Origin: an uncultured bacterium
Lineage (GTDB): Bacteria > Omnitrophota > Omnitrophia > Omnitrophales > Aquincolibacteriaceae
Direction of reading: 5' to 3'
Assembly: GCA_964385615.1 (NCBI GenBank)
Contig: CAYLPP010000013.1
Location: forward strand, 8,130 to 72,129
DNA length: 64,000 bases
The notes below the pieces were generated by a model that saw only the letters and a program-made list of their open reading frames with translations, ran no database searches and was not told where the DNA came from. Numbering within the stretch: the stretch's first letter is position 1; each line of letters starts with the position of its first letter. This document shows, in pieces, positions 1,582 to 55,933 of the stretch. The position numbers and the translations under genes were made by a program.

Positions 1582-2712
1582 GTGCCTCTTACTGTTAATG
1601 ACCTTCAAGCTCTTTTGGTTTTGAACCAGGCGGGGAGCGGGGTGTGCTCTTCGCTTATGGAAATTTTGAAAGACTGCGCCCCCTCGGTTCTCTTGAAAAG
1701 AATTCTCGAAGAAAACTTTATGGACCGGGCGCAAGGGGTCAAAGAAGCGCTTAAAATTTTTGATCCCTGCAGGGAGTTGGAGGCTTGCGGCCGATCAGGA
1801 ATTGAGGTTCTGACGTTTTGGGATGAGGATTATCCGGAAATATTGCGCCAGATTTTTGATCCGCCGGCGGTGCTGTATGTGGCGGGGCGTATTTTAAAAG
1901 AAGATTCAGCCGCTGTCGCGATTGTAGGTTCGCGTCATGCCAGTCTCTACGGGGCTTGCCAAAGCCGTAAAATTGCGTCGGGACTGGCTGAATCCGGGAT
2001 TACGGTCGTTTCCGGAATGGCGCAGGGAATTGATCTTAGCGCGCATGAAGGTGCTCTTTCAGTTTCTCACGGACGGACACTGGCGATACTCGGATGCGGA
2101 TTGCATACGGATTATCCACGGCACCGAAAAAAAATTCAGGAAAAAATTTGTGAGCGGGGAGCGGTTCTCAGCGAATATTCTTTAACCATGCCGCCGCTTC
2201 CTGAAAATTTTCCGAAACGGAACCGGTTGATTTCAGGATTGAGTCTTGGAGTGCTGGTGGTTGAAGCGCATCAAAAAAGCGGTTCTCTAATTACAGCGCA
2301 ACTGGCTCTTGATCAGGGGCGGGATGTTTTTGCCCTGCCCGGTTCGGTAGACGCCATGAATTCAAAAGGAACTCATCAGCTGATCAAACAAGGGGCTTAT
2401 CTCGCCGAAAACGCGCAGGATATTCTGGAGGTTTTGAAACTTGATTTGGACTGGGTTTCATTGAGAGACCAAAACCCGGAAAATATTCTTGAGAGAAATT
2501 CGTTGGAAAACAGAAGTCTGGAAGAAATGAAAATTCTCCAGTCACTTAAGGCCGGTCCCAGAACAAGAGAAGAAGTGATGGATACCCTTTCTTGTCATAG
2601 TCCGGGGCAGGGGGCGGTATTATTGACCTCTTTGGAGCTGAAAAGGGTCATCCGCCGGCGGTTAGACGGCCGTTATGAGTTGTTATCTTCTGCCTCAGGA
2701 ACGCTTCTTTAA
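1582..2712 (+). CDS. dprA: DNA processing protein A (DprA/Smf)
   Basis: AIVGSRHASLYG...VVSGMAQGIDLSAHEGAL and a Rossmann-like DprA core; 376 aa with a C-terminal winged-helix-like tail. Confidence 0.85.
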   Translation: MPLTVNDLQALLVLNQAGSGVCSSLMEILKDCAPSVLLKRILEENFMDRAQGVKEALKIFDPCRELEACGRSGIEVLTFWDEDYPEILRQIFDPPAVLYVAGRILKEDSAAVAIVGSRHASLYGACQSRKIASGLAESGITVVSGMAQGIDLSAHEGALSVSHGRTLAILGCGLHTDYPRHRKKIQEKICERGAVLSEYSLTMPPLPENFPKRNRLISGLSLGVLVVEAHQKSGSLITAQLALDQGRDVFALPGSVDAMNSKGTHQLIKQGAYLAENAQDILEVLKLDLDWVSLRDQNPENILERNSLENRSLEEMKILQSLKAGPRTREEVMDTLSCHSPGQGAVLLTSLELKRVIRRRLDGRYELLSSASGTLL

Positions 2713-2798: not shown

Positions 2799-3224
2799 TT
2801 GAAAGGAGTTCAAAGTATGGAAAATTTTGGCGGATCCCTCGGTGGGGCTACGGCTCCCAAAGGCAGACGTTTTGCCGCGGGTGTGATTGATTTGATCATC
2901 ATTCCCATTATTCTCGGTTTGATCCTCGGTATTATCCTTCTGAATGTTCCCGAAGGGATTCGCAGTGTTATTCTGGTGCTTGTGAACATCCTCTGGCTTA
3001 TTGTCCGTGATGCTGTGTATTCTCCGGGCCGTGCCATGGTAGGTTTGAAGCTGATCAGCCTTGATGGTGCTAAAGTGACCTGGCTTCAGTCTTTAATCCG
3101 GAACGTTCTTTTGATCATCCCGTTTGTGCTGGTAGTGGGCTACATCGTTGAGATCGTGGCTTTGATTACCAAGGGTGAGCGTGTGGCGGATGGTTGGGCC
3201 AAGACGCGTGTGGTTCTTGCTTAA
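2799..3224 (+). CDS. RDD-family membrane protein (likely true start ATG 2817)
   Basis: RRFAAGVIDLIIIPIILGLILGIILL... and multi-TM composition typical of the RDD family; a strong AAAGGAG lies before ATG 2817. Confidence 0.6.
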   Translation: MKGVQSMENFGGSLGGATAPKGRRFAAGVIDLIIIPIILGLILGIILLNVPEGIRSVILVLVNILWLIVRDAVYSPGRAMVGLKLISLDGAKVTWLQSLIRNVLLIIPFVLVVGYIVEIVALITKGERVADGWAKTRVVLA

Positions 3225-3251
3225 AAATTGATCTAAAGCCTTATTCTAAAA

Positions 3252-3290
3252 GGCCTTCCCTGATTTTCAGGGGAGGCCTTTTTTATTTTA
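3252..3290 (+). terminator. Rho-independent terminator (ggccttccctg/caggggaggcc stem plus TTTTTTATTTTA)
   Basis: An 11-bp stem with one G-U wobble, a 6-nt loop and a U-tract, 28 nt after the RDD stop. Confidence 0.7.
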
Positions 3291-3296
3291 TTTGCG

Positions 3297-3314
3297 TCAT
3301 TCCTGCAGGAATGA
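3297..3314. promoter_or_regulatory. Perfect 18-bp palindrome TCATTCCTGCAGGAATGA (candidate operator for a dimeric regulator)
   Basis: An exact inverted repeat seen in the sequence, between the terminator and the start of the 3342 ORF. Confidence 0.35.
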
Positions 3315-3341
3315 TACCTTTTATACCAAGGACGTGAACTT

Positions 3342-3734
3342 GTGAAAAAGAAGAGCTCGAAAAAGAAAGAAACCGATTTTACCAATGCAGCCGGTTCGCT
3401 TGCGTTTCATACCGATATGGCGCATCTGAAAAAGCAGGTGCAGAAACTGCTTGAACAATCCACCAAGGCGGATGAGCGGATCCAGGACCTGGAAATTCAT
3501 GTTAATCTCTTAACCCGTTTACTTACAACTCTTTGCGTTGAGAAGTTCGGTATGCGGATTGGTGTCTTAAAGCGCATGATCAAGCGGATTGAAAAAGAAG
3601 CTATCCGCGACTCTCAGATTTCTCACCTTGAAGCACTCTACAAGCTTTCCGCATCAATGGATAAGAAAGGCCCGGATAAAGGTTCCGGCCCTTCAGCTTC
3701 CGGTAAAAACGACCCTTGGGAAGATATTTCCTAG
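3342..3734 (+). CDS. Hypothetical protein, Lys-rich N-terminus and predicted coiled coil
   Basis: 130-aa ORF with coding-like composition and no recognisable domain; the N-terminus reads MKKKSSKKKE. Confidence 0.45.
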   Translation: MKKKSSKKKETDFTNAAGSLAFHTDMAHLKKQVQKLLEQSTKADERIQDLEIHVNLLTRLLTTLCVEKFGMRIGVLKRMIKRIEKEAIRDSQISHLEALYKLSASMDKKGPDKGSGPSASGKNDPWEDIS

Positions 3735-3847
3735 CCCAGACGAACTTCAAGTTCGTTCTGGCTGTACCCGTGCTAATGAAGCGCGGGTGCTAAACCCTGC
3801 TTTAAAGCCCACTTAAGTATTCCAAAATACGTCCGATAAAACAACGT

Positions 3848-3875
3848 TTGCAAGTTTTGCCTTTTTCGGTACAAT
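3848..3875 (+). promoter_or_regulatory. Putative sigma70 promoter (TTGCAA, 16 nt, TACAAT) for the thiS-like/topA ORF
   Basis: Near-consensus hexamers about 40 nt upstream of ATG 3912, with AAGGAA before the ATG. Confidence 0.45.
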
Positions 3876-3911
3876 GGAACCCATCTTTTTCCAAAGAAGG
3901 AATGGATTAAT

Positions 3912-6344
3912 ATGAATCTTTTGATCAATGGTGAAACCCGCAGCATTCAGGCAGCTTCAAACTTAATTGCTCTTTTGAATGCTTTAGAGATCAATCCTCA
4001 GTCGGTTGTCGTTGAACATAATCAGAATGTGGTTTCCAGAACCCGTCTGGCAGATGTCCCACTTAAGGAAGGCGATCAGGTTGAAATTGTTCAGTTTGTA
4101 GGCGGGGGCGACGGCGAAGAAGCTCCTGCTGATCCGCCCGCTGCAGAGCCTTCCCCGGAGGCTGAACCCGCGGCCAAGCCCAAGGCGAAAAGAAAACCGG
4201 CGGTTAAAAAGACGGCAGTTAAAAAATCCCGCAAAACGGCATCCGATGATGGCCCAGTTGGTAAGGCTCGTAATCTGGTTATCGTAGAATCACCCGCCAA
4301 AGCTAAGACTATTAACAAGTTTTTGGGAGATGATTACCAGGTCGAGGCTTCTTTCGGGCATGTTCGGGACCTGCCCAAGAGTAAAATGGGCGTGGAAATC
4401 CAACAGGATTTTGAACCCAAATATATCGTGATTAAGAAAGCCATGAAAAATGTCAGCCATTTGCGCAAGCAGGCAAAAGGCAAGCGGACGATTTACCTGG
4501 CACCCGATCCTGACCGTGAAGGGGAGGCTATCAGCTGGCATTTAAATCACATTTTCCGTGAAGATAATCAGGAACAGGAAATCCGGCGCGTGGTTTTTAA
4601 CGAAATCACCAAAGACGCGGTTAAGGAAGCTTTTAAACACCCGCGTGATATCGCCATGAACCTCGTTAACGCTCAGCAAGCCCGCCGTATTCTCGACCGC
4701 ATTGTCGGCTACGAACTCAGCCCGCTTTTGTGGAAAAAAGTCGGCCGTGGTTTAAGCGCCGGCCGTGTGCAGTCGGTCGCGCTTCGCATGATCGTCGAGC
4801 GTGAACGCGAGATCCGCGGATTTGTACCGGAAGAATACTGGTCGCTGGAAGCCCGTCTTTTAAGTGATAAGAAAGAAAATGCGAACCGTCCGTTTATTGC
4901 CAAGCTTGATAAAATTAACGGAGAAAAAGCTGAGCTCAAGAACAGCGAACAAACCGAAAAAATTAAAGCGGAACTTTCTTCGCTTCCATTCAAGGTTGAA
5001 AAGGTTGAAAAGAAAGAACGCAGCCGCAATCCTCAAGCGCCTTATACCACGAGTAAACTTCAGCAGGAATCCTATAATCGTCTCGGATTTCCCGCCGCTA
5101 AAACCATGCGGGTCGCCCAGAAACTTTATGAAGGCGTGGATTTAGGCGAAGAAGGCACGGTCGGTTTAATCACTTATATGCGTACGGACTCCGTGAATAT
5201 TTCCGTGACGGCCCAGACGGAAGCAGCTCAGTACATCCGTAAAAAATTCGGCGATAAATACCTGCCGCCTTCACCGCCGGTTTATAAATCCAAAAAAGGC
5301 GCGCAGGAAGCGCATGAGGCTATTCGCCCCAGCTCCGTGCTTCGTGAGCCTGAAATGCTTCGTTCTTATCTGACGGATGAGGAATTCAAACTCTATGATT
5401 TGATCTGGAGAAAATTCACGTCTTCTCAAATGGTTCCCGCCGTGGATGAGAATATCGCAATCTCGATTTCAGCCGGCGACAAATATTCCTTCAAAACGAC
5501 CGGCCGGCGGAATATCTTCCCCGGATTCGGCCTGGTTTTCGGAACCGCTTCATCCGCGGCTGCCGATGAAAAAGAAAAAGAAGAAAGCGGGCAGGAAGAA
5601 AATCTCGAGCTCCCGAATCTGGAAGCTGGAGAGCTTTTAAAGCTTCTCGAACTGCTTGGGAATCAGCATTTTACAAAACCTCCCGCGCGTTTTAACGACG
5701 CGAGTTTGGTTAAAATTCTGGAGGAAAAAGGTATCGGCCGGCCCAGCACTTACGCGCCTACGATTTTTACACTGCTTTACCGCGAGTACGTTAACCGTAA
5801 GGGCGGCGCGCTCATGCCGACTGAGCTTGGCGAGACGGTGGCCGATCTTTTGATTAAGCATTTCCCGAATATCTTGGACACTCAGTTTACGGCCCGGATG
5901 GAAGAAGAGCTGGATAAAATTGAAGACGGTGAGCTGGAGTGGAAAAAAGTGCTGATCGATTTCTACAAGCCTTTTGAAGCCGATGTGGCGGTGGCGCGTG
6001 AAGAAATGAAAAATATGCGCCAGGAAGCGATCCCGACGGAATACAATTGTCCGGTTTGCGCTAAGGTCATGGTGATCAAGTGGGGCCGGTTCGGTAAGTT
6101 CATGGCTTGCTCCGGCTTTCCGGATTGTAAGACTGCCCGCCCGATTCCGACCGGCGTCAAATGCCCTGAACCGAATTGCGGCGGAGATATGATCAAGCGT
6201 CTCTCTAAAAAACGCCGTACTTTTTACGGCTGTTCGAATTATCCGAAATGCAATCACATCATGAATAAACTTCCAAAAGAAGGTGACGGATTGAGCGAAG
6301 ACGAGAAAGTTTCCGACACCGAAAAGGGAACTGTCGAACCCTGA
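3912..6344 (+). CDS. topA: DNA topoisomerase I with an in-frame N-terminal ThiS-like (ubiquitin-fold sulfur-carrier) domain and a Lys/Ala/Pro-rich linker
   Basis: Residues 1-66 (MNLLINGETRS...VEIVQFVGGG) resemble ThiS, including the terminal VGGG as in B. subtilis ThiS. No stop follows. Next comes AEPSPEAEPAAKPKAKRKPAVKKTAVKKSRK, then the TopA Toprim start NLVIVESPAKAKTINKFLGDDY, the catalytic domains and C-terminal C4 zinc ribbons (CPVCAK...CSGFPDC; CPEPNCGG...CSNYPKC). Confidence 0.85.
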   Translation: MNLLINGETRSIQAASNLIALLNALEINPQSVVVEHNQNVVSRTRLADVPLKEGDQVEIVQFVGGGDGEEAPADPPAAEPSPEAEPAAKPKAKRKPAVKKTAVKKSRKTASDDGPVGKARNLVIVESPAKAKTINKFLGDDYQVEASFGHVRDLPKSKMGVEIQQDFEPKYIVIKKAMKNVSHLRKQAKGKRTIYLAPDPDREGEAISWHLNHIFREDNQEQEIRRVVFNEITKDAVKEAFKHPRDIAMNLVNAQQARRILDRIVGYELSPLLWKKVGRGLSAGRVQSVALRMIVEREREIRGFVPEEYWSLEARLLSDKKENANRPFIAKLDKINGEKAELKNSEQTEKIKAELSSLPFKVEKVEKKERSRNPQAPYTTSKLQQESYNRLGFPAAKTMRVAQKLYEGVDLGEEGTVGLITYMRTDSVNISVTAQTEAAQYIRKKFGDKYLPPSPPVYKSKKGAQEAHEAIRPSSVLREPEMLRSYLTDEEFKLYDLIWRKFTSSQMVPAVDENIAISISAGDKYSFKTTGRRNIFPGFGLVFGTASSAAADEKEKEESGQEENLELPNLEAGELLKLLELLGNQHFTKPPARFNDASLVKILEEKGIGRPSTYAPTIFTLLYREYVNRKGGALMPTELGETVADLLIKHFPNILDTQFTARMEEELDKIEDGELEWKKVLIDFYKPFEADVAVAREEMKNMRQEAIPTEYNCPVCAKVMVIKWGRFGKFMACSGFPDCKTARPIPTGVKCPEPNCGGDMIKRLSKKRRTFYGCSNYPKCNHIMNKLPKEGDGLSEDEKVSDTEKGTVEP

Positions 6345-7222
6345 TGAATCCTCACGTTCAGAATTTTCTGAAATTCCTGGAAAGCGAAAAAAACGCTTCC
6401 TCGCACACGGTCAAGAATTACGCTATCGACTTGCGGGAATTTTCAGCCTTTCTGGATCAGAAGGGCGTGGAGTCCGTGGACTATATCGACATCCGTTCTT
6501 TCCTCGCGCTTTTGAAAGATAAGAATTATTCCAAGAGTTCAATTTCCAGAAAACTGGCCTGTATCCGTTCTTTTTTTAAATTTCTGGCCCGGGAAGAAGT
6601 GGTTAAAACCAATCCTTCGGCGGGTATTGCCACGCCGAAACGTGAAAAGAAACTCCCAAATTTTCTCGAGCGTGAAGAAGTGGTGCGGTTAATTGAATCG
6701 CCGGCGGCCGCAAGCTGGGAAGGCAAACGTGACCGGGCTATTCTGGAAACACTTTACAGCTCTGGTTTGCGCGTCAGTGAACTGGTTGGACTGAATCAAG
6801 ATGATTTGGATTTTTTCAGCGCCTTGGTGAGAGTGCGCGGAAAAGGCAAAAAAGAGCGGATTGTTCCTCTGGGGCAGGCGGCGCTAAAGGCTGTTCAGGA
6901 ATACACAGGGCACAAACCGCCTAAGATGCGCGATAACGGACAGAAAAAACCTCTTTATTTAAACCGCTCAGGCGGCCGTTTGACGGACCGCAGTGTGAGG
7001 CGCATGATTTTGAAATATTGCCGGGTAACCGGCCTCAAAAAAGAAGTTTCTCCCCACATGCTCAGGCATTCTTTTGCCACGCATATGCTGGACAACGGCG
7101 CGGATTTAAGAAGCGTGCAGGAGCTTTTGGGGCATGAGAATTTGTCTACGACGCAGATTTACACGCATGTGACGACCAAAAGGCTGAAAGAAGCCTATGA
7201 GGCCGCTCACCCTCGCGCGTAG
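6344..7222 (+). CDS. Tyrosine site-specific recombinase, XerC/XerD family
   Basis: The C-terminus reads RHSFATHMLDNGADLRSVQELLGHENLSTTQIYTHV (R..H..R..Y catalytic signature). A 1-nt overlap with the topA stop suggests a chromosomal dimer-resolution Xer rather than a phage integrase. Confidence 0.8.
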   Translation: MNPHVQNFLKFLESEKNASSHTVKNYAIDLREFSAFLDQKGVESVDYIDIRSFLALLKDKNYSKSSISRKLACIRSFFKFLAREEVVKTNPSAGIATPKREKKLPNFLEREEVVRLIESPAAASWEGKRDRAILETLYSSGLRVSELVGLNQDDLDFFSALVRVRGKGKKERIVPLGQAALKAVQEYTGHKPPKMRDNGQKKPLYLNRSGGRLTDRSVRRMILKYCRVTGLKKEVSPHMLRHSFATHMLDNGADLRSVQELLGHENLSTTQIYTHVTTKRLKEAYEAAHPRA

Positions 7223-8588: not shown

Positions 8589-9585
8589 GAACGGATTTGT
8601 TTCAAAAATGGTTCTGCCTTTGCTGGATGTCGCCTCAGGGATTTATGGGGTCGCGTCAGGAACCACGAGGAATTTTTACGAAAAAAGCATTTTAAAACCC
8701 AAACAGCTTCCTTTCCCGGTGATTAGCATCGGGAATCTGACTTGGGGCGGTACCGGGAAAACTCCGCTGGTGGAATATGTTGCGCGCCGGATCACGGAGC
8801 GTCAGCGCACGCCTTTGATTCTGACCCGCGGTTATGGGAAGGATGAAGTTGAGCAGTACCGTCAGCATATGCCCCGCGCCGTCATCGGTGTCGGAAAGAA
8901 CCGCGTGCAGGTGGCCGACGAAATTATTCAGAAGCAGAAAGTGGATGCCGCGATTCTGGATGACGGTATGCAGCACTGGCCGATCCGCCGTGATTTTGAA
9001 ATTGTCACCCTCAGCGCTTTAAATCCTTTTGGAAACGGCAAGCTGATTCCTCGCGGGATTCTGCGCGAACCGGTGGCTCAGCTGCGCCGGGCTTCCGCGG
9101 TGGTCATTACTCATTCCGACCTGATCGCGGTCAAGGAGCTTCATGAGCTGAAGGAAATGGTGCATCAGAAAGCCCCGGAAGCCGTGATCGCCGAAGCTTA
9201 TCTGGAGCCTTTGTTTTTTTACCGCGCCAAGAAAAAAGCGCGGGTTCCTATTACGAAGCTTCAAGGTCAGAAAGTGACGACTTTTTCGGGTTTGGGTTCT
9301 CCCCGGTCTTTCCGGCTCCTGCTTTCCAAAATGAAAATCAAGGCGGTCCGCAATTTCGAGTTCAGCGACCATCATGTTTTCACGGAAAAAGAATTGAAAG
9401 AGATTAAAGAAGTCAGCGATACGGCCTACATTGAAGAAATCGTAACCACGGAAAAAGATTTCTTTAGGAGTCCGGCCATGATTTCCGAAATTTTGAACCC
9501 TCTCATTCTGGCGGCGCGTATGCGCATTCACAGCGGTGAAGAGGAATTCAACCGACGCCTGCTTAAGGTGCTGGAGCGTTCGTGA
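8542..9585 (+). CDS. lpxK: Tetraacyldisaccharide 4'-kinase
   Basis: Carries the GNLTWGGTGKTP P-loop characteristic of LpxK. The 5' end overlaps the waaA tail; alternative ATGs exist at 8551 and beyond. Confidence 0.85.
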   Translation: MFFMRDYFRRLAEGYENGFVSKMVLPLLDVASGIYGVASGTTRNFYEKSILKPKQLPFPVISIGNLTWGGTGKTPLVEYVARRITERQRTPLILTRGYGKDEVEQYRQHMPRAVIGVGKNRVQVADEIIQKQKVDAAILDDGMQHWPIRRDFEIVTLSALNPFGNGKLIPRGILREPVAQLRRASAVVITHSDLIAVKELHELKEMVHQKAPEAVIAEAYLEPLFFYRAKKKARVPITKLQGQKVTTFSGLGSPRSFRLLLSKMKIKAVRNFEFSDHHVFTEKELKEIKEVSDTAYIEEIVTTEKDFFRSPAMISEILNPLILAARMRIHSGEEEFNRRLLKVLERS

Positions 9586-11528
9586 GAGATGTTCTGGACA
9601 GTCTCGGAGCGGCCGGGCTCAAGGCCGTTTCGGGATTTATAACCAGTCTTCCCAATGAAACATCCGCGGGGCTTGGAAGATTTTTGGGTTCCTGCGTGTT
9701 CCGGTTTCATTCCCGCCGGCGTGTAGCCTACGCGGATCTGAAAGCTGCTTTCGGCGCGAAGTTCACCGAAAAACAGCGCTGGGACATTGTTAAGAAGCAA
9801 TATCAGCATATTGTTCAGTCCGGCCTGGAAATTTTGAAACTCCCGGCCCTCGGGAAAATACCTCCGCGTGATCTTTTTGAAGTTCATACGTCGCAGGCTT
9901 TTTTTGATGAACTCAAAGAAAACCAGGGCGGGATTTATCTGACCGGGCATTTCGGGAACTGGGAAATGCTCCAGCTTTTCGCGCAAAGCGAGAACCGCTC
10001 CGTGGCCGTATTGGCGCGTGAACAAAAATTTCCGCGCATGAATGAAATCGTCAACCGTATCCGCGAAGCCGCGGGGTTTCATGTGATCAGCACGGGAATG
10101 GGAGTGCGCGGGCTTTTCCGCAGTCTCCGGCGCAAGGAATTGATCGGGCTTCTGGGGGATCAGGATGCCGGAAAAAACGGGGGGCTGATCCTTCCTTTTC
10201 TGGGGCGGAAAACCACAGTACCGACCGGCGCTTTTGAGTTGGCAGCGCGCGCGCAGGCAAGGCTTTACCCGATTTTCATGGTCCGGCGGGGTAATAAAAC
10301 CTTTTACGATATTTATGTTTACCCGGCTCTGAAATTTCAGTCGGACAGTGAACAGGAAATGACCGAAGGCGCGAAACGGTACCTGGCTCTTCTGGAAGAG
10401 CATCTTTCGAAAAATCCTGAACAATGGCTTTGGGGTGTGAAACGCTGGAAATACAGCTGGACTAAACGAATTCTGATTTTGTCGGATGGAAAACCCGGGC
10501 ACGTTAAACAGTCTGAAGGAATTGCCGCACAGTTTGAGCGCATTGATACTCAATACGGCCGGCCGGGCATGGAATATCCCGTGACTACACTTAAAGTCGA
10601 ATACCTTTCACGTCTCCACCGGGTTTTGTTTCCGGTGTTCGCGCTTTTTTTTCTTCCCTGGGCGCAAGGAAGAATGAGTGTTTTGAAGTATTTTTTTAAA
10701 AAGGAAACTGTGGAAGCTCTTGTTAATCTCAGCGCGGATTTTGTGATTTCAGCCGGCTCCGGTTTGGCTCCGCTCAATCTCTGCCTGGCCCGGGACTGCC
10801 GTGCCAAGAGCCTTGTGGCCATGAATCCCGCATTTCCTTTTAATCTTTTCCGCTACGATCTGGCGCTGGTACCCGCGCATGATCAAGGAATTCTTCCGGA
10901 AGGGACTCTGCGCACTTTGATTACGCCGGCCAGAATGGAAGCCGGTGAAATGGAAAACGCGGCCGGAAAACTCGCGGCTGGTATGCGGGCGCCTGAAAAA
11001 AACGGAGTTGCCGTTTTTTTAGGCGGTTCGACGCGGCACTTCTCTCTGCGCCTTAAAGATATTCAAAGTCTCTTTGAAATCCTTAACCGCGTTGCGGAAA
11101 AAACGGGCGATTATATGGTCACCACTTCCCGCCGTACTTCGGAAGACATCTGCGGTTATCTCAAACAATCGGTGGCCGGTCATGCCAATTGCCAGCTTTT
11201 AGTTATTGCCAAAGAAGACAGCCGGCCCGAAGTGGTTCCCGGGATGATGACTCTGGCGGATATTCTGATTGTGACCGAAGACAGTGTTTCCATGATTTCC
11301 GAAGCGCTTCGCTCCGGGAAGAAAGTGGTAGTTCTCAGCCTGGATTCGGAAGGGCTTCCCAAAAAACACCGGCGTTTTCACGATATCCTCGCAAGTGAAT
11401 CTGCCGTGATTTCAGCGGACCTCGGGAATCTGGAAGAAAAACTTTTAAACCTGAATCTTCACCCGGCTACGGATTTGGTCGCGCGTCAGGATCAGATGCT
11501 TAAAAAGAGATTGCAGGAGATTTTGTGA
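9582..11528 (+). CDS. Lipid A biosynthesis acyltransferase (LpxL/HtrB family) fused to a C-terminal ELM1/DUF1022-like domain
   Basis: The N-terminal ~290 aa carry the HFGNWE acyltransferase motif and an LpxL-like fold. The C-terminal ~350 aa begin ILILSDGKPGHVKQSEGIA, an ELM1-family signature I recall as a GT-B-like domain that often neighbours LPS genes. Confidence 0.65.
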   Translation: MRDVLDSLGAAGLKAVSGFITSLPNETSAGLGRFLGSCVFRFHSRRRVAYADLKAAFGAKFTEKQRWDIVKKQYQHIVQSGLEILKLPALGKIPPRDLFEVHTSQAFFDELKENQGGIYLTGHFGNWEMLQLFAQSENRSVAVLAREQKFPRMNEIVNRIREAAGFHVISTGMGVRGLFRSLRRKELIGLLGDQDAGKNGGLILPFLGRKTTVPTGAFELAARAQARLYPIFMVRRGNKTFYDIYVYPALKFQSDSEQEMTEGAKRYLALLEEHLSKNPEQWLWGVKRWKYSWTKRILILSDGKPGHVKQSEGIAAQFERIDTQYGRPGMEYPVTTLKVEYLSRLHRVLFPVFALFFLPWAQGRMSVLKYFFKKETVEALVNLSADFVISAGSGLAPLNLCLARDCRAKSLVAMNPAFPFNLFRYDLALVPAHDQGILPEGTLRTLITPARMEAGEMENAAGKLAAGMRAPEKNGVAVFLGGSTRHFSLRLKDIQSLFEILNRVAEKTGDYMVTTSRRTSEDICGYLKQSVAGHANCQLLVIAKEDSRPEVVPGMMTLADILIVTEDSVSMISEALRSGKKVVVLSLDSEGLPKKHRRFHDILASESAVISADLGNLEEKLLNLNLHPATDLVARQDQMLKKRLQEIL

Positions 11529-13642
11529 AAGTTCTTCAACTGCTTCCGTCCTTACATGTCGGCGGTGTCGAACGCGGAGTGGTAGACCTTGCCCGGGCCA
11601 TGAAAAAACGCGGGGAACACGCCGTTGTGGTTTCTTCCGGGGGGGAGCTTGTCGCGGAACTTCAAAAAATTGGAGTTCCGCACTACGCGCTTCCGGTTCA
11701 TAAAAAAAACCTGACGACACTGGCGATGGTTCCCAAGCTTGTTGAAATTATCCAGCGGGAGAGAATCGACATTGTTCACGGCCGGAGCCGTGTTCCTGCC
11801 TGGGCCGGCTGGCTGGCCGCGCGGAAAGCCGGAGTGCCTTTTGTCACGACCTGTCACGGTTATTATAAGGCCCATCCGCTCAGCCGTGTCATGGGCTGGG
11901 GAAAAAAAGTTATCGCTATTTCCCGCGTGATCGCGCGGCACATGATTGATGATTTTGGTGTTTCTCCCGACCGTATCCGCCTGGTTCACCGGGGCGTGGA
12001 TCTGAGCCAGTTTCCCGCCAGACCCGCGAAACGTGACCGCTCCGGTCCGCTGCGTATCGTCAATGTCGGCAGGCTTTCTCCGATCAAGGGGCAGGTGGAA
12101 TTTTTGAAATCCGTGCACAAAATGAAAAGCCGGCTGGAACAGCCGTTTGAAGTCTTACTTATTGGTTCTGAAGGAAAAGGTAAAACGAAATACACGGAGC
12201 TTCTCCAGAAAACGATTAAACAGCTGGAGCTGGAATCTTGCGTTCAGATGCTGGGAACCCGGCGTGATATCGCCGAACTGATTGCAAGTTCGGACCTCCT
12301 GGTGCTTTCAACGTTGGTGCCGGAAGCCTTTGGCCGGGTGATCATTGAAGCCGGGGCAGTGGGAACTCCCGTGCTGACGACCAAGCTTGGGGGGATTCTG
12401 GATATTATTGATCACGGTCAAAACGGACTTTTGGTTGAGCCGGGAGATATTGAGGGGATGGCTTCCGGAATGATGGAAATTTTAAATAATCCGGACCGCG
12501 CCGCGGAAATGGCGGCGAATTTACGCGCGAAAGTAGAGCGGGAATTTACGCTTGATCAGATGGTTGAAAAAACCCTGCAGGTTTACCGGGAAGCGCTTCC
12601 TGAAAAAAATATTTTGGTTATTAAACTCGGCGCGGTAGGGGACGTGATTCTGGCCGTGCCCAGTCTGCGTATGCTTCGTGAAAAATTTCCGCAGGCGCGG
12701 ATTCAAATGCTGGTGGATAAAAAAATAGCCGGTTTGGTTTCAAAAGCGCCCTATTTGAACGGAATCATTACCGTGGACCGTTCTAAAATTTCGAATTGGA
12801 CTTACCTGCGGAAATTGGCCGGGCGTCTTCGCCGGGAAGGTTTTGATGCTTCCGTGGATCTTCAAAATTCGAAGTGGACGCATTTATTGGCGTTTCTTTC
12901 AGGAATTCCGGAGCGCTACGGTTTTTCCAGAAAACCGTTCGGGTTTCTTTTGAACCGGGGCGAGCGGTACGCGGTAATTGCCGAACCGCCCGTGAAAAAT
13001 CAGTACCGTGTTCTTTCTAAAATGGGAATCCGTAATCTGGATGAAACGCTTGAACTCTGGTCGGATGATGAAAACCGCGCTAAAATTGAAAACCTGCTCG
13101 GAGAAGATGTGTTGAGACAGGGAGTTCCCCGTGTCGGTCTGGTGGTCGGCTCCAGCCCTAAATGGGAAACTAAAAGATGGCCGGCTTCTTATTTCCGCGA
13201 ACTGGCCGGACGGCTTTCCCGGGAGCTGAATTGTAAAATCGTGCTGATGGGTTCTTCGGACGATGAAGCGGCCGCGGTCTGGGCCACGGATTTTGACGCG
13301 GTCATTAATCTGGTTGGGAAAACGTCCCTTCGTGATCTGGTTCCGTTGATGCAGAAAATGGACGTAGTCGTCAGCGGAGATACCGCACCTTTGCATGTCG
13401 CCGCGGCCATGAAAACCCGGATCGTCGCGCTGTTCGGGCCGACGGACCCGAAACGGCATATGCCGCCTTCCAATCACGCGGCGGTGCTGAGCCGTAATCT
13501 TCCGTGTCAGCCGTGTTATCAGGGAACCTGCGCCATCGAAGACAAGCTGGCCTGCCTGAAAAAAATTTCAGTTGATGAAGTTTTTTTAGCGGTTAAAAGG
13601 CATTTAACCGCTTTGAACCGTTTTGAAAATGTGTCTCAATAA
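11525..13642 (+). CDS. Two-domain glycosyltransferase: N-terminal GT4 (GT-B) fused to a C-terminal GT9 heptosyltransferase-like domain
   Basis: The N-terminus (MKVLQLLPSLHVGGVERGVVDLA...EAFGRVIIEAGAVGTPVL) is GT4-like. The C-terminal half (ILVIKLGAVGDVILAVPSLRMLREKFP...GDTAPLHVAAAM) is GT9 (RfaF/WaaC/WaaQ-like). Confidence 0.7.
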   Translation: MKVLQLLPSLHVGGVERGVVDLARAMKKRGEHAVVVSSGGELVAELQKIGVPHYALPVHKKNLTTLAMVPKLVEIIQRERIDIVHGRSRVPAWAGWLAARKAGVPFVTTCHGYYKAHPLSRVMGWGKKVIAISRVIARHMIDDFGVSPDRIRLVHRGVDLSQFPARPAKRDRSGPLRIVNVGRLSPIKGQVEFLKSVHKMKSRLEQPFEVLLIGSEGKGKTKYTELLQKTIKQLELESCVQMLGTRRDIAELIASSDLLVLSTLVPEAFGRVIIEAGAVGTPVLTTKLGGILDIIDHGQNGLLVEPGDIEGMASGMMEILNNPDRAAEMAANLRAKVEREFTLDQMVEKTLQVYREALPEKNILVIKLGAVGDVILAVPSLRMLREKFPQARIQMLVDKKIAGLVSKAPYLNGIITVDRSKISNWTYLRKLAGRLRREGFDASVDLQNSKWTHLLAFLSGIPERYGFSRKPFGFLLNRGERYAVIAEPPVKNQYRVLSKMGIRNLDETLELWSDDENRAKIENLLGEDVLRQGVPRVGLVVGSSPKWETKRWPASYFRELAGRLSRELNCKIVLMGSSDDEAAAVWATDFDAVINLVGKTSLRDLVPLMQKMDVVVSGDTAPLHVAAAMKTRIVALFGPTDPKRHMPPSNHAAVLSRNLPCQPCYQGTCAIEDKLACLKKISVDEVFLAVKRHLTALNRFENVSQ

Positions 13643-13653
13643 CGGAAAATAAA

Positions 13654-15708
13654 ATGAAGAAAATTCTGGTCGTGACCAAAAACTGGCTGGGGGATATTCT
13701 TTTTGAGGTCCCCTCGATTCATCTGATCCGGGAAAAATTTCCCGAAGCCGAAATTGTGTGCATGGCCCCTCCGCGCTGCCGTGAGATTCTGGAGCGCAAT
13801 CCTGATATCAGCAGGGTTCTGGAGTTCGACGAGCGGGGAGCGCAAAAGTCTTTTTGGGCCCGGATTCAATTCATCCGAAAATTGCGCCGTGAAAAATTCG
13901 ACAAAGCTTTTTTATTCCACCGTTCGCGCACCCGTGCGTTTCTGCTTTTTCTGGGAGGGGTTAAAAAGCGGACGGGCTTCAAAACCAAATCCGGCTTTTT
14001 TCTTACGACGGCGGTTCCTGAGCCTTCTCATGATTTGCACCATGTGGATTATTTTATGGAACTGCTTAAAGCGGACGGATTTCAATGTCCAGCCGCGCCT
14101 TCCTATAAGTTTTATTTTTCAAAAGAAGATGGACAGCGGGCTTCAAGAATTCTTCAGCAGCATGGTGTCAGCGCGCCTTATATCTGCTTTCATCTGGGCG
14201 CGAATTGGGAGCATAAGCGCTGGCCTCTTGAGCATTTCGCGGCTTTAGCGGATCTGCTTTCTCAAAAAACAAAAGCGGCGGTTGTTCTGACCGGGTCGCG
14301 CGGTGACGGTAAATTGGCGCGCAAAATGCTTTCTTACACTCAGGCGTCACACCCCGTGGATATTACGGGCCGCACTTCGCTGGGAGAACTGGCTGGAGTT
14401 TTCAGTGGCGCTTCTTTTGTGGTATCCGCCGATTCCGGGCCCATGCATATTGCTTCCGGCGTGGGCGCGCGCGTGATGGCAATTTTTGGACCGACGGATC
14501 CCAAATTAACGGGGCCCCGGGGTACCGGCGATACAATTGTGCTGAGTCATATTCCCGAAGGGTATACCGTTCCCTGGTATGGGAAAAAACTTCCCGTGGA
14601 AGGATGGCTGTCTTTTATCACACCGGAACGTGTGATGACGGCGCTGGAAGAAAAAGGCTGGCTTCGCGGTTTTTCAGGGGAGCATCCGGCTTTTACCGGC
14701 CCCGCGGAAGCCGGCGTGGACAAAAAAGGAAACCTGCTGTTTGTCACACTGAGTAATATTGGAGATGTTATTTTAACCATGCCCGCGCTGACTGCGGCGG
14801 CCCGGCATTATCCAGGCGCTTCAGTGACGGTGGTTTGCGGGCCAAAAGCCGCGTCCCTGCTTACCGGAAGCCGGTGGGTAGACCGTCTTTTGATTTACGA
14901 TAAGAAAGCTTCCTGGAAAGAAAAACTTCAATTTTTGAAAGAACTGCGTAAAACACGCTACGATTGTGTGGTTGATTTGCGTAATTCCGCGATGCCTTTT
15001 CTTGTTTCCGCTAAAAAGCGCAGCCCGGTTTTTCGGCGTTTCCGTTCGGTGTCGATGCGCGAAAGGCACCTGGAAGTGCTTGAAAAGATGAGGCTTCAAG
15101 CGGAAACTCCGTCTGTTTTTGATTTTTTTAACGCGGAGGATGAACGCAGGCTTCTGCATAAGTTGAAATACAAAGGCGTCCGCGGGGATAAAGATTGGAT
15201 TGTGATCGCGCCGGTCGCGGCCAGCAGTGTCAAGACATGGCGTTTGGAAGGTTTTAGGGAAGTCATCCGCAGGCTTCTGGATGAACAAAATAAAGATATT
15301 ATTCTCGTGGGCGATTCCGGCGCCGTCGACGCTTGCCGTTCGCTGATAGGGGAAGACCGTCACCGGGTTTTTAGTTTAGCGGGTGAGACCCCATTGAGGG
15401 AATTAGCCGTGCTGGTTTCCCGCTCCGCGCTGGTTCTTGCTAATGACAGCGCCGTCATGCATCTAGCCCATGAAATGGACCGCGCGGTGGTCAGTTTGTT
15501 TGGCCCTACGAATCACGAAAAATACGGCCGTTCCGGTCCCCACTGGAGAATTGTCCGCGAAGGCGTGAAGTGTTCGCCGTGTGAAGCCGCGCAATGCCGT
15601 TTTGAACGTCAAAGCTGTTTCGAAGATTTAAGATCCGAAAAAGTTTTTCAGGCCTGCATGGAAGTCATGAACACTTTCAACGGCGGTTTTGAAAAGCGTT
15701 ATGGCTGA
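13654..15708 (+). CDS. Tandem double GT9 heptosyltransferase-family protein (two complete GT9 domains)
   Basis: Domain 1 reads MKKILVVTKNWLGDILFEVPSIHLIREKFP...DSGPMHIASGVG. Domain 2 reads LLFVTLSNIGDVILTMPALTAAARHYP...NDSAVMHLAHEM. Confidence 0.75.
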   Translation: MKKILVVTKNWLGDILFEVPSIHLIREKFPEAEIVCMAPPRCREILERNPDISRVLEFDERGAQKSFWARIQFIRKLRREKFDKAFLFHRSRTRAFLLFLGGVKKRTGFKTKSGFFLTTAVPEPSHDLHHVDYFMELLKADGFQCPAAPSYKFYFSKEDGQRASRILQQHGVSAPYICFHLGANWEHKRWPLEHFAALADLLSQKTKAAVVLTGSRGDGKLARKMLSYTQASHPVDITGRTSLGELAGVFSGASFVVSADSGPMHIASGVGARVMAIFGPTDPKLTGPRGTGDTIVLSHIPEGYTVPWYGKKLPVEGWLSFITPERVMTALEEKGWLRGFSGEHPAFTGPAEAGVDKKGNLLFVTLSNIGDVILTMPALTAAARHYPGASVTVVCGPKAASLLTGSRWVDRLLIYDKKASWKEKLQFLKELRKTRYDCVVDLRNSAMPFLVSAKKRSPVFRRFRSVSMRERHLEVLEKMRLQAETPSVFDFFNAEDERRLLHKLKYKGVRGDKDWIVIAPVAASSVKTWRLEGFREVIRRLLDEQNKDIILVGDSGAVDACRSLIGEDRHRVFSLAGETPLRELAVLVSRSALVLANDSAVMHLAHEMDRAVVSLFGPTNHEKYGRSGPHWRIVREGVKCSPCEAAQCRFERQSCFEDLRSEKVFQACMEVMNTFNGGFEKRYG

Positions 15709-38237: not shown

Positions 38238-40355
38238 ATGAAAATCGAGAAGTTTCTATCCGTTCTTTTGAGTGTCTTTATGGTGACAGCCGGTATTCCA
38301 TACTCTTCGGGGTATGCTGATCTATCGGCACCTGATGCGGGGGGAGCCCCTGTTAATAATTTGGGACAAAACTCCGGAACGCCTGAAAAGCCACTTGCTG
38401 AGGAGGCTCAACAGGAAAAAGAAGAAGAAAAGCCCGCAGATGCAGGTTCTGATCCGTTTAGTAATGAATTTTTGATGAGCGGCGGTGTCAATTTGTCACA
38501 AAGCCAGCCGGTACAAACTTATACCGATACCGTTTCGCAAGCTGAATCCAAAGTTCCTCCCGTGACTCAGCCCGCGGTTAATGACACGCTTCAGTACGGA
38601 GAGATAAATTCTTCTGCCGGTGGAATGGTTCAAACCACGGAAAGCGTAAAAAATGAAAGAGATATTCAAAAAATCTCTTTAGCCAATTCTGAAGAAAGTG
38701 AAAAAGAACCGCAATCTTTTGTGAGTGGCTCAGAGCTTGAGAGGTCAATTCAAGCCACGGCCGAAGGTTTTTTGAATGTTCAGGCAGATTCTCTTGATGT
38801 TTTACCTGCAGTAGACAGCGTTTCTTCTTTGTCCTCAGCTGATTCTGAGGGAGAACTCATTAGTGATGAGACTGCGGACGAGGCTTATAGCTTTACTTCA
38901 GAAGAAAAAAGCGCTCTAAAATATATTGATTTTTTAGCCAATTATGACGGTAGTGAATTAACGCCTGAGATTTTTAAGGATAATCCTGAGTTTGCGCAGG
39001 TTCTGCTGGCGTTGACTTTGGTGATGCTTAACGGCGGCGGGGACGTTCCCGAAAGTTACGGCCCTCAGCTTAAGAAGATGATTGAAAATGGGTATGACCC
39101 AAATCAGATTGCAGTGCAGTTGATGCAGGTGCTTGATAAGGGGGTTTGGGACACTATCCGCAAGAAGGCCGCGAAGTTTAACCTGACGGAACTTGGAATC
39201 GATATCCATTCGGACGATTTCAAAACTTTCAGCGCGCTGGCTCAAAAAATCCGGGAAAAGCATGATCAGATGGTCAAGGATTACGCTGACGGTAAAATAA
39301 AACAAGAAAAAATTGATGCCGCGGAAACTCAGCTGGCCGTATTTGTTTCCATTCTTTATAGAGCGATGGCGTCGCCTAAAGGGGATCAGGCAGTGCCGAG
39401 TTTCAAAACCAAGGACGGTAAAACTTTTTGTGCGAATTGCGCGGGCGCCAATAGGATCGTAACTGTGCTTTTCGCATCCTTTGGAATGGCGGATCAGTAT
39501 TTTTTGGTTCATGGATTCGCGGATACCGGAAAGGGTGAGGCTGAAGCGCATGAATGGGGTTATTTAAAACTAACGGCTCAGGACGCGAAAGCGGAGGAGA
39601 AAGACACGAGGATTATCAATATCGATATGGGACTTCAGAAGTTGGCCGGCGGTTTGAAATTATCGGCTTTGACCGGACCAGGAAAAGTGGCCATTCCCCG
39701 AGGAAACCCGATTTTATACGTGCGGGCCAAAACGGTCATTTTGAGTAAAATTCCGGCGTATAAATATGAAGGCCTAGTCACCGCCGTTAAAATCGCTGAA
39801 GATGCGATGATTAAAGCCAATGAATTGATGACGAAAGCGAAAGATTTGGATGACCCGAAGGCAAAAAATGCCAAGGTAATTGAAGCCGTGAAAGAACTTG
39901 CCAAGGCTTTGGCTTATCTGAAGCTGGTGGAAAAGGCTTATCCCGGCCAGACGAGGTCGGAATTTTTGAGCACGCTCTGGCTTGGGAAGATGGTAAATCC
40001 TCTGGGGCAGAATGTGGATAAAATTTCTGATGCCATCAAGTTTCTTGAAAAAACAATTTCCACTGTTAACGAAAAGCTTCCGAAAGATCAAAAGATTGAA
40101 ATTCCGGAAACCAGCGGTGTTAAGATTGCGCTGGGGGTTAAGAGCCCTGATACCGAAACATCCCTGACGGCCGTGTCTTTGGAGCCTATTTCGGCGAATT
40201 TGACGCAGGTTCTGGCAGATTCATTCCCTGATGTGCAGAATTCCTCGATGATTTTTGTTAACGCGGTCAGCATTGAGACGAACACTGGGGAAGAATTGGC
40301 CGCATCTGACCTCCCGGCGGGATCCGATTCGGTTTCGGAAAATGAGCCGAATTAA
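38238..40355 (+). CDS. Large secreted hypothetical protein (705 aa) with a central transglutaminase-like (papain-fold Cys/His/Asp) core
   Basis: A signal peptide (MKIEKFLSVLLSVFMVTAG) and an acidic low-complexity N-terminus. GKTFCANCAGANRIVTVLFASFGMADQYFLVHGF, then EAHEWGYLKL, then RIINIDMG align by eye to the transglutaminase-core pattern (C...AR.LGIPAR.V.G / HAW.EV / D). Gene GC is lower than its neighbours and 158 nt of AT-rich DNA lie upstream. Confidence 0.5.
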   Translation: MKIEKFLSVLLSVFMVTAGIPYSSGYADLSAPDAGGAPVNNLGQNSGTPEKPLAEEAQQEKEEEKPADAGSDPFSNEFLMSGGVNLSQSQPVQTYTDTVSQAESKVPPVTQPAVNDTLQYGEINSSAGGMVQTTESVKNERDIQKISLANSEESEKEPQSFVSGSELERSIQATAEGFLNVQADSLDVLPAVDSVSSLSSADSEGELISDETADEAYSFTSEEKSALKYIDFLANYDGSELTPEIFKDNPEFAQVLLALTLVMLNGGGDVPESYGPQLKKMIENGYDPNQIAVQLMQVLDKGVWDTIRKKAAKFNLTELGIDIHSDDFKTFSALAQKIREKHDQMVKDYADGKIKQEKIDAAETQLAVFVSILYRAMASPKGDQAVPSFKTKDGKTFCANCAGANRIVTVLFASFGMADQYFLVHGFADTGKGEAEAHEWGYLKLTAQDAKAEEKDTRIINIDMGLQKLAGGLKLSALTGPGKVAIPRGNPILYVRAKTVILSKIPAYKYEGLVTAVKIAEDAMIKANELMTKAKDLDDPKAKNAKVIEAVKELAKALAYLKLVEKAYPGQTRSEFLSTLWLGKMVNPLGQNVDKISDAIKFLEKTISTVNEKLPKDQKIEIPETSGVKIALGVKSPDTETSLTAVSLEPISANLTQVLADSFPDVQNSSMIFVNAVSIETNTGEELAASDLPAGSDSVSENEPN

Positions 40356-44346: not shown

Positions 44347-44522
44347 CCTTATTTCATCTTTCCCTGAACTTACCCCGCTGTATCTGCGCAGGTGCTGGAC
44401 AAAGCAAAAACACCCGTGCTATTATAGGCCTTCCAAAAATTTATACCTTCCGGATCGGGCCTAACTACCCATGAAACCTGTAGATAGGCCGACGATTCTT
44501 CAAACCCGGAAATTGGGAAATC

Positions 44523-45509: not shown

Positions 45510-46976
<1,467 letters not shown>

Positions 46977-50574: not shown

Positions 50575-51606
50575 ATGCAGGAATACGCCCGCTATTCTAG
50601 ACAGCTTGTTCTGAAGGAAATCGGCAGGGAAGGCCAGCGAAAGCTCGAGTCTGCCCGCGTGGCTGTGATTGGGATCGGAGCTCTTGGCTCCGTTTCCGCC
50701 AATCTTTTGGTCCGTGCCGGGGTCGGCACGGTCCGGTTGATCGACCGCGATTTTCTGGAAATTGACAATCTTCAGCGCCAGGTTCTTTATGATGAAAAAG
50801 ATCTCGCGGATAATCTCCCCAAGGCCATTGTCGCGAAAGCCAAGCTTGAAAAAGTCAATTCGGAAGTCCGCGTTGAAGCCGAAGTCGCGGATGTTAATCC
50901 GGCAACGATTCAGCTTTTACTGCGCGGGATGGATCTGGTTATTGACGGAACCGATAATTTTGAAACACGGTTTCTGATTAATGATTTTTGTCTTAAAAAT
51001 AAAATTCCCTGGATCTACGGCGGAGCGGTCCGCACGGAAGGAATGTCTTATGTGGTTCTCCCTGGAGAGGGCCCTTGCCTTCGCTGTCTTTTCGGCCAGG
51101 CGCCGGATATCGGCGCGGCCCAGACCTGTGACCAGGTTGGAATTCTGGCGCCGGTGGCCCATATGATTGCGTCCTTTCAGGCGATTGAAGCCATCAAGCT
51201 TTTAGCGGGTCACCGGGAAGCGGTAGACCGCAAACTCTGGAAAATGGATTTATGGAGCCGTCAGTTCAAGTCGATTTCCGTCGACAAGTTCCGCAAAGAG
51301 CCTTGCGCCGGGTGCAAATCCCAAGAATTTCCTTATTTGCAGAAAAAAAGCGCGACCCACGCGGTTTCGCTCTGCGGGCGTAACGCGGTGCAGATTTTCA
51401 GGCAGGAAGGCTCCGCGGAAATTAATTTCAAAAATCTTGCTTCAAGACTTGCTAATCTTGCCGAAGTACAGTTTAATGAGTACTTACTGCGCTGTAAGGC
51501 GGCGCCGTATGAAATCACTCTTTTTTCAAGCGGCAGGGCCATTATTAAAGGAACGGAAGATGCAGGGCAGGCCAGAAGTCTGTACGCCAAATACATAGGA
51601 ATTTAA
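50575..51606 (+). CDS. ThiF/MoeB/HesA-family E1-like adenylyltransferase with a ~90-aa C-terminal extension
   Basis: VAVIGIGALGSVSANLLVRAGVGTVRLIDRDFLEIDNLQRQ, zinc motifs CLRC...CAGC, and an extra C-terminal domain ...ITLFSSGRAIIKG... Confidence 0.75.
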   Translation: MQEYARYSRQLVLKEIGREGQRKLESARVAVIGIGALGSVSANLLVRAGVGTVRLIDRDFLEIDNLQRQVLYDEKDLADNLPKAIVAKAKLEKVNSEVRVEAEVADVNPATIQLLLRGMDLVIDGTDNFETRFLINDFCLKNKIPWIYGGAVRTEGMSYVVLPGEGPCLRCLFGQAPDIGAAQTCDQVGILAPVAHMIASFQAIEAIKLLAGHREAVDRKLWKMDLWSRQFKSISVDKFRKEPCAGCKSQEFPYLQKKSATHAVSLCGRNAVQIFRQEGSAEINFKNLASRLANLAEVQFNEYLLRCKAAPYEITLFSSGRAIIKGTEDAGQARSLYAKYIGI

Positions 51607-55870: not shown

Positions 55871-55933
55871 TGCCGATACTCTGTTAGAACTATGCAGTTC
55901 TTCGAAAAACCGGTTTTAAAACGGGAGAATCGA

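Follow-up and report, generated by a model that had tools for sequence, protein, structure and literature searches.

In a 64,000-nucleotide stretch of DNA from an uncultured Omnitrophota bacterium (family Aquincolibacteriaceae; GenBank assembly GCA_964385615.1, contig CAYLPP010000013.1, positions 8,130 to 72,129 of the forward strand; the whole stretch is hereafter called the window), the gene for DNA topoisomerase I (TopA), an essential enzyme, encodes an 810-residue protein that is a true translational fusion, in which a bona fide domain of the sulfur carrier ThiS, ending in Gly-Gly-Gly, is followed in frame by a 55-residue linker and by TopA (Table 1). The fusion is a conserved gene arrangement in a large Omnitrophota clade and a previously undescribed one, no description of it having been found in literature searches, in which "ThiS" collides with the word "this". 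It is real and conserved, and its most likely mechanism has precedent. Comparison of homologous sequences favors, at a probability of roughly one half, a precursor that would be cut after GGG to release ThiS and TopA, among three mechanisms offered in a preliminary description of this DNA (a precursor, a DNA-tethered ubiquitin-like (Ubl) module and an N-terminal extension of TopA).

The preliminary description had recognized a ThiS/MoaD-family domain of 66 codons, ending in VGGG and in frame with TopA, and had proposed profile searches for ThiS (PF02597) and topoisomerase domains; both were matched when the searches were run on the open reading frame (ORF), and Pfam and NCBIfam bear out the domain. 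PF02597 is found at residues 4–66 with E-values of 4.8e-12 in the whole protein and 2.2e-14 for the domain alone (46.7–54.2 bits against a cutoff of 22.5), and the thiS equivalog model TIGR01683 reaches 62.2–69.1 bits (the cutoff is 37.45) and is matched from position 2 to 64 of its 64 positions. The remainder is a complete bacterial TopA, with Toprim, Topoisom_bac and two Zn_ribbon_Top1 domains in Pfam and a score of 791.5 bits for TIGR01051 (topA_bact; cutoff 456.4; model positions 1–630 of 632). E126, D199, D201, Y422, R424, T425, D426, S427 and eight cysteines of this part are invariant across 62 homologues; the catalytic roles of the Toprim Glu, the DxD motif, the Tyr and the Cys4 sets are presumably those of E. 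coli TopA, from which we assign them. An AlphaFold2 model built from a 62-sequence alignment predicts the TopA part confidently, and gives residues 1–60 of the ThiS domain a predicted local distance difference test (pLDDT) score of 88–93 and the order beta-beta-alpha-beta-beta-alpha-beta, which is that of a beta-grasp fold. The only PDB sequence matches of residues 1–66 are ThiS chains, and Gly66 aligns with the natural chain ends of 1tyg_B (87/87), 1f0z_A (66/66) and 2cu3_A (64/64).

The census of homologues comprised the 120 best matches to the full-length window protein in public data. PF02597, Toprim, Topoisom_bac and zinc ribbons occur together in 85 of them (757–840 residues, 57–84% identity), which come from NCBI, JGI, ENA and Logan assemblies; an additional match in a public collection (P0336, 810 residues) is 100% identical to the window protein. 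All 62 fused proteins that were scanned match TIGR01683. Where the fusions are named, the entry reads "type I DNA topoisomerase" of a Candidatus Omnitrophica or Omnitrophota bacterium, and one is "hypothetical protein A2Z83_08525" of Omnitrophica bacterium GWA2_52_8; public entries speak of topoisomerase I only, and leave the ThiS domain unnamed. A search with the first 260 residues returned eight fragmentary proteins in which ThiS is joined directly to Toprim. A profile search with ThiS and the N-terminal part of Toprim against 1.84 billion cluster representatives found five fused clusters only, all fragments; the family is larger than this count suggests, since fusions of full length evidently fall into the clusters of ordinary TopAs. 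The long-linker form of the window is present in three independent DNA assemblies, namely the window, a GTDB species genome (L005) and a Hainich groundwater assembly (L040), the latter two at 67–70% identity, and the same long linker is found in homologues 84%, 77% and 76% identical to the window protein. Because the fusion occurs in so many unrelated assemblies, it is far beyond chance or local error.

The two sides of the junction evolve differently. Gly-Gly is present in 85 of 85 fusions and FVGGG in 79. The positions that are invariant or nearly so in the fusions are those of the ThiS family (N6, G7, L18, L21, L22, V32, V33, E35, N37, V40, G54, D55, E58, V60 and F62–G66); N6, G7, E35, N37 and E58 are invariant, and V32, G54 and D55 nearly so. 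Pairs of fusions are on average 48% identical over ThiS and 68% over the core of TopA, and the ratio of nonsynonymous to synonymous substitution rates (dN/dS) among the three long-linker DNA sequences is 0.12–0.20 for ThiS and 0.05–0.07 for Toprim, values that are approximate because dS is near saturation. Linker length is continuous from 5 to 76 residues. Alignments thus place the ThiS domain and its GG motif under purifying selection, and the linker drifts freely in length and sequence. The residue after GGG is Ser in 28 of the fusions, Ala in 27, Lys in 16, and another in the rest. Long linkers consist of 20% K, 16% A, 14% P and 10% E, and are laid out acidic first and basic second, with a net charge of -3.6 in the first third and +9.1 in the remainder.

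In the window protein the frame continues after VGGG through DGEEAPADPPAAEPSPEAEPAAKPKAKRKPAVKKTAVKKSRKTASDDGPVGKARN to LVIVESP, and the Toprim domain starts as LVIVESPAKAKTI. The preliminary description quoted only the middle of this linker; its remaining checkable details were correct. It had also called the linker histone-H1-like, which holds for composition (18% K, 22% A and 16% P) and for nothing further, since no linker-histone family of Pfam or NCBIfam matches the 810-residue protein; homology to histone H1 was therefore ruled out. The Lys-rich half, AAKPKAKRKPAVKKTAVKKSRKTASDDGPVGKARN as one string (net charge +11), is like the tail of unfused Omnitrophota TopAs: each of the 34 unfused TopAs of full length among the matches of the census starts with a Lys-rich tail, for example MAKAKKSVKAVKSSKSVKPAKTAKGPKY-LVIVESP, so that the basic half looks like a feature of TopA, and the acidic, Pro-rich spacer alone looks peculiar to the fusions. 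A TopA from an unrelated Negativibacillus metagenome-assembled genome (L007, 2550–2870) also bears a long Lys-rich N-terminal tail (VKKTAVKKTAAKKTTAKK...), and basic N-terminal tails of TopA thus recur outside the Omnitrophota. Residues 64–116 of the window protein have pLDDT values below 50, which suggests that the junction is exposed. As the preliminary description had stated, no in-frame ATG, GTG or TTG precedes the TopA core: codons 41–121 contain none, and the only near-cognate codons are CTG122 and ATC124. Homologous linkers share no conserved Met either, and separate translation of TopA from an internal canonical start was rejected on these grounds.

Gene order around the fusion is conserved (aroB-dprA-RDD-hypothetical-(thiS)-topA-xerC-waaA-lpxK-lpxL/ELM1), and thiS occurs at this position in several states. 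The preliminary description had held that separate thiS and topA genes in relatives, with this locus an assembly artefact, would refute the fusion; such genes do exist, adjacent at the same locus, and the artefact is refuted by the 85 fusions. In two Omnitrophica CG11 loci (L002 and L004) thiS ends in GGGS-TAG and the topA ATG follows immediately; in L065 it ends in GGGS-TGA, one nucleotide before the topA ATG; in L068 it ends in GGGI and overlaps topA by TAATG; in L008 and L044 it ends in GGG-stop, LVIVESP lying 14–16 nucleotides past the GGG codons; in L009 it ends in GGGSLKPVNA-stop, 43 nucleotides before topA; and in L042 it has a longer tail. In L018, where thiS ends in GGGSS-stop, two ORFs sit between thiS and topA (5252–5966; 184 and 56 residues, no Pfam match), and could be a small mobile or toxin-antitoxin-like cassette. 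Fused genes have short linkers of 5–12 residues, as in L038 and many proteins, or long ones of up to 76. One fusion has been split again: in L037 (6215–6444) a 186-nucleotide, hairpin-rich insert (minimum free energy -94.7 kcal/mol) interrupts the ORF, is flanked by a perfect 22-nucleotide direct repeat (GTAAACCCCCAGCTGTCCGGCC) and supplies the topA ATG at its end, and removal of 208 nucleotides restores ...FVGGGSSGKKSKPPAVRPKKGALVIVESP in frame. From its structure the insert looks like an element of the miniature inverted-repeat transposable or repetitive extragenic palindromic type with a target duplication. Finally, thiS is missing from the locus in L039, L066 and L067, where TopA starts with a Lys-rich tail and is 68% (aligned part), 65% and 70% identical to that of the window, respectively. 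In a rough neighbor-joining tree of the TopA core, separate-gene loci (L018, then a group of L002, L008, L009 and L042) fall outside one large clade, which holds all 85 fusions together with several nested unfused groups. The tree and the re-split locus indicate repeated events of fusion, of fission and of loss, and the relatives with a separate thiS, or with none, indicate that the ThiS domain is dispensable for TopA.

A sulfur carrier requires a free Gly-Gly carboxylate, which agrees with the alignment of Gly66 to the chain ends of solved ThiS structures; in the primary product of the fused gene, however, GGG at residues 64–66 is followed by 744 in-frame residues. In the favored precursor mechanism, the chain would be cut after Gly66 by an endopeptidase with Gly-Gly specificity, which would most likely belong to the JAMM/MPN+ type and have its gene in another part of the genome. 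One product would be ThiS of the normal 66 residues, its -GGG carboxylate free, to be adenylated and thiocarboxylated by a ThiF-type activating enzyme (E1) for thiazole, and hence thiamine, synthesis; the other would be topoisomerase I with a disordered N-terminal tail, first acidic and then basic. Both the identity of the protease and the role of fused ThiS in thiamine synthesis are presumed in this scheme. Processing after GGG is suggested because selection still acts on the GG and on the ThiS-family residues of the fused protein, because free homologues, including those at the same locus, carry residues after GGG, because a disordered and exposed junction is predicted, and because TopA works without the domain in three relatives.

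The free homologues also suggest how the fusion may have arisen. Among 68 free ThiS proteins (P0121–P0188), 33 continue past GGG for 1–35 residues (A in 12 and S in 3; I, SS and SLKPVNA occur as well, and the longest tails reach 35 residues), so that the lineage must trim ThiS or leave it inactive; these tails would imply C-terminal trimming of ThiS in this group, or else miscalled stop codons. If the lineage already trims post-GGG residues from free ThiS, loss of a stop codon between two translationally coupled genes would be nearly neutral, and we propose that this low cost lets lineages pass back and forth between the fused, abutting and lost states. The fused domains and the free ThiS proteins encoded next to topA are about as similar to P0121 (56% identical to the window domain), which is encoded in a thiE-thiS-x-thiG operon, as they are to each other, and the fused domains group beside P0121 and P0122. 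By this comparison fused ThiS does not appear to be a diverged paralogue.

Several observations weigh against a precursor. No JAB or Prok-JAB family was matched in the ORFs of the window (about 53 gene-like ORFs of at least 120 residues, excluding those inside larger genes), and the JAMM motif HxH-x7-S-xx-D was found neither in the window nor in 68 related loci (743 kb). TopA, unlike MoaE for MoaD, is not a functional partner of the carrier, so that co-synthesis has no obvious benefit. No thiG or thiE was found in the 64-kb window by tblastn with L001 proteins, nor does the window hold thiH. The near saturation of dS weakens the estimates of selection, and the invariance of GG could partly reflect the need for a flexible hinge.

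The window nevertheless encodes parts of the pathway, thiC and a ThiF-type E1, both far from the fusion. The one E1 gene of the window, next to mqnE and greA at a distance of 46 kb from the fusion, encodes the likely activator of free ThiS. The preliminary description had credited this enzyme, at 50575, with an extra C-terminal domain; the E1 is real, and its C-terminal part is that of the normal long form, as it matches the 338-residue MoeB/ThiF model PRK12475 end to end, so that an unusual E1 was ruled out. The radical-SAM gene beside it encodes MqnE and not ThiH. Control of thiS-topA or thiC by a thiamine pyrophosphate (TPP) riboswitch was likewise discarded: Rfam scans gave no TPP riboswitch or any other family at gathering score in the whole 64 kb, and no TPP riboswitch at E<=1 in 3200–4000 (thiS-topA) or 44300–45700 (5′ of thiC). 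The fusion is not part of a Ubl conjugation operon (Ubl, E1, E2 and JAB), its neighbors being dprA, genes for an RDD protein and a coiled-coil protein, xerC, waaA and lpxK. Of the genomes that represent Omnitrophota species, more than 75% encode thiamine biosynthesis (PMC10066038). Together with thiC and the E1 of the window, this speaks for a need for ThiS.

Instead of being released, ThiS might stay in place as an N-terminal accessory beta-grasp module of a permanent two-domain enzyme, either as a docking or regulatory domain or as a handle that is recognized by E1 and that the basic linker keeps on DNA; another ThiS, or none, would then serve thiazole synthesis. This explanation is possible, if doubtful. 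It would account for the stability of the architecture over 85 diverged sequences and for the lack of a peptidase nearby; short linkers leave only 5–10 residues before the first Toprim strand, TopA accepts accessory fusions such as that of the NCBIfam TopA/SWI-domain model NF004966, and a promoter-like site of its own and the absence of a TPP riboswitch give the gene a housekeeping look. However, TopAs 65–70% identical to that of the window have no thiS at their locus (L039, L066 and L067), and thiS is separate at the same spot in L065 and L068, as expected of a dispensable domain. Moreover, the invariant residues are those of the ThiS family, including the terminal GGG, which a non-carrier would have no reason to keep, and the grouping of the fused domains by P0121 and P0122 is not that of a divergent paralogue. 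An unlikely elaboration is that the domain acts as a ubiquitin-like regulatory module that links the control of supercoiling to sulfur or thiamine status. One possibility would be that ThiS stays attached and is recognized by the ThiF-type E1 or by other partners; another would be a switch of TopA activity or of DNA binding through regulated cutting at GGG, which would expose the basic tail that is neutralized by the acidic spacer.

Still less likely is a near-neutral accident, in which the stop codon between overlapping, coupled genes was lost and ThiS is a non-functional passenger on its way to deletion. The separate genes of relatives abut or overlap (TAG-ATG in L002, TAATG in L068, a 1-nucleotide gap in L065), so that a single mutation can fuse them, the fused, split and absent states are scattered on the TopA tree, and the fused ORF of L037 has been split again by 208 inserted nucleotides. 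Decay is nonetheless at odds with equivalog matches in 62 of 62 proteins, an invariant GG and a dN/dS of 0.12–0.20 at 57–84% identity, and the linker of the same proteins serves as an example of sequence free of constraint. An assembly or sequencing error that removed a stop codon after GGG in the window, for which the G5 homopolymer at 4101–4109 and the separate genes of some relatives might speak, is scarcely credible and was rejected, given 85 independent fused homologues, some of them with the same long linker, the long-linker form in L005 and L040, a 55-codon linker that reads through in frame and is without equivalent in unfused loci, and the finding, as the preliminary description had maintained, that neither deletion nor addition of one G in the run yields a GG-stop (FVGGATAKK... 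with 69 more residues, or FVGGGRRRRSSC and a stop, respectively).

By analogy, the precursor would work most like the MoaX and Deinococcus MoaD-MoaE fusions and, formally, like the ubiquitin-ribosomal protein fusions. Its functionally unrelated partner, its long linker with a charge pattern and the lack of a linked peptidase set it apart. The eukaryotic genes UBA52 and RPS27A encode fusions of ubiquitin to ribosomal proteins, from which ubiquitin is released by GG-specific proteases. As in these, a beta-grasp protein with a Gly-Gly end stands N-terminal to an abundant housekeeping protein of unrelated function; unlike these, the present fusion is bacterial, its beta-grasp protein belongs to the sulfur carriers and not to the protein modifiers, and its processing is hypothetical. 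Family, length, conserved residues and FVGGG tail are those of canonical ThiS (TIGR01683; B. subtilis 1TYG chain B and E. coli 1F0Z), unlike which the primary product has no free C-terminal carboxylate, and the gene, which has no TPP riboswitch, adjoins topA instead of belonging to a thi operon. With respect to TopA, the basic low-complexity tail resembles the chlamydial TopA/SWI-domain fusion (NF004966) and Lys-tailed TopAs such as that of Negativibacillus, and actinobacterial TopAs have Lys-rich C-terminal tails. These other additions to TopA are DNA- or chromatin-binding modules, none of them a sulfur carrier or a Ubl, and the chlamydial one is C-terminal. A carrier that is made with a residue past Gly-Gly, which is removed by a JAMM protein, is known from the HcyS-Ala/HcyD pair of Wolinella.

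MoaX, the MoaD-MoaE fusion of Mycobacterium tuberculosis, becomes active only when an unidentified protease cuts it between Gly82 and Ser83 (PMC4326299). In MoaX as in the present protein, a carrier of the ThiS/MoaD family is fused through Gly-Gly to the protein encoded downstream, and the GG|S site of MoaX is matched here by Ser or Ala as the most frequent residues after GGG. The difference is that MoaE is the carrier's own partner, whereas the partner here is an unrelated housekeeping topoisomerase behind a disordered linker of 5–76 residues, and cleavage is predicted by comparison. The MoaD-MoaE fusion of Deinococcus radiodurans is cleaved by DRJAMM (PMC8832034), and for QbsD and CxnF the proposed role is the trimming of QbsE and CxnE after GG (PMC5925218). 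In these systems, too, a carrier is made with residues past Gly-Gly, which JAMM/MPN+ proteins remove before activation by E1; the free ThiS proteins of the topA locus that end in GGGS, GGGI, GGGSS or GGGSLKPVNA resemble the carriers of the QbsE/CxnE type. Unlike the qbs and cxn clusters, in which the JAMM gene lies beside the carrier gene, the window and its related loci showed no JAMM motif.

Table 1. Coordinates of the fused gene, its parts and signals, and other genes of the window discussed in the text.
Feature	Position	Strand	Basis and remarks
ThiS-linker-TopA ORF	3912..6344	+	810 aa; ATG start, TGA stop
ThiS beta-grasp sulfur-carrier domain, aa 1-66, FVGGG end	3912..4109	+	PF02597 and TIGR01683 above curated cutoffs; AlphaFold2; PDB matches
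Gly64-Gly65-Gly66, C-terminal tail of ThiS; proposed cleavage after G66	4101..4109	+	Conservation and PDB alignment; cleavage putative
Linker part 1, acidic, Pro/Ala-rich, DGEEAPADPPAAEPSPEAEP; first 20 residues	4110..4169	+	Sequence; net charge -7; pLDDT < 50
Linker part 2, basic, Lys-rich, AAKPKAKRKPAVKKTAVKKSRK + TASDDGPVGKARN	4170..4274	+	Net charge +11; like tail of unfused Omnitrophota TopA; predicted disordered
Toprim domain, aa 122-232; start LVIVESP, Glu126, DPD 199-201	4275..4607	+	Pfam; residues are invariant columns
Topoisom_bac core, aa 247-681; Tyr422 in GLITYMRTDS motif	4650..5954	+	Pfam, NCBIfam
Two C4 zinc ribbons, Cys713/716/733/739 and Cys751/756/774/780	6045..6266	+	PF01396 twice; Cys invariant
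Sigma-70-like promoter candidate, TTGCAA-16-TACAAT, 5′ of fused ORF	3847..3875	+	Consensus scan; pattern match only
Shine-Dalgarno-like purine-rich stretch, AAGAAGGAATGG	3894..3905	+	Read from sequence; ends 6 nt 5′ of ATG 3912
dprA, upstream synteny anchor	1582..2712	+	Pfam; same order in L002, L008, L009, L039, L065-L068
xerC-type recombinase, downstream synteny anchor	6344..7222	+	Pfam; ATG overlaps topA stop
thiC (hydroxymethylpyrimidine phosphate synthase)	45552..46976	+	Family match; shows that at least the pyrimidine half of thiamine is made
ThiF/MoeB-type adenylyltransferase (E1); pathway context, not linked to fusion	50575..51606	+	ThiF PF00899 at aa 7-241

Some further features of the window may be recorded. 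The topA stop overlaps the xerC ATG (ATGA, 6341–6346), a coupling as tight as that of the thiS-topA junctions of relatives. Directly 5′ of the fused gene lies a Lys-rich coiled-coil ORF of 130 residues (3342–3734) with no family match; ORFs of 120–143 residues without a firm Pfam match occupy the equivalent position in L039 and L065–L068, a likeness of size and position only. Farther downstream, three large fused genes for the lipopolysaccharide core follow one another, namely lipid A acyltransferase + ELM1-like (9582–11528), glycosyltransferase GT4 + GT9 heptosyltransferase (11525–13642) and a double GT9 (13654–15708); the first two are kept in L065 and L066, and the first also in L038 and L068. 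A single ORF at 44523–45509 matches both siroheme decarboxylase subunits, AhbA (residues 5–145) and AhbB (residues 166–296), and is thus a fused AhbAB. Two ORFs have no Pfam family at E<=1e-4 (38238–40355, 705 residues; 55892–57358, 488 residues), the second of which precedes two FecR-domain proteins and has a CHASE2 adenylate/guanylate cyclase and a GAF-SpoIIE phosphatase in its vicinity.

Because the fusions are annotated as "type I DNA topoisomerase" only, thiS could be counted as absent in name-based pathway reconstructions. If the fusion is a precursor, this clade would make its thiamine sulfur carrier in the way that eukaryotes make ubiquitin, N-terminal to an unrelated housekeeping protein and released by a GG protease, and it would provide a system in which to find a bacterial GG-endopeptidase, which is likewise unidentified for MoaX. 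It would also be a model for the origin of Ubl-fusion genes from translationally coupled neighbors, of which the spaced, abutting, overlapping, fused (with short or long linker), re-split and lost states survive, and would bear on how processing of the ubiquitin type predates ubiquitin signaling. If instead the domain stays on TopA, it would be the first regulatory domain of the Ubl type on a bacterial topoisomerase.

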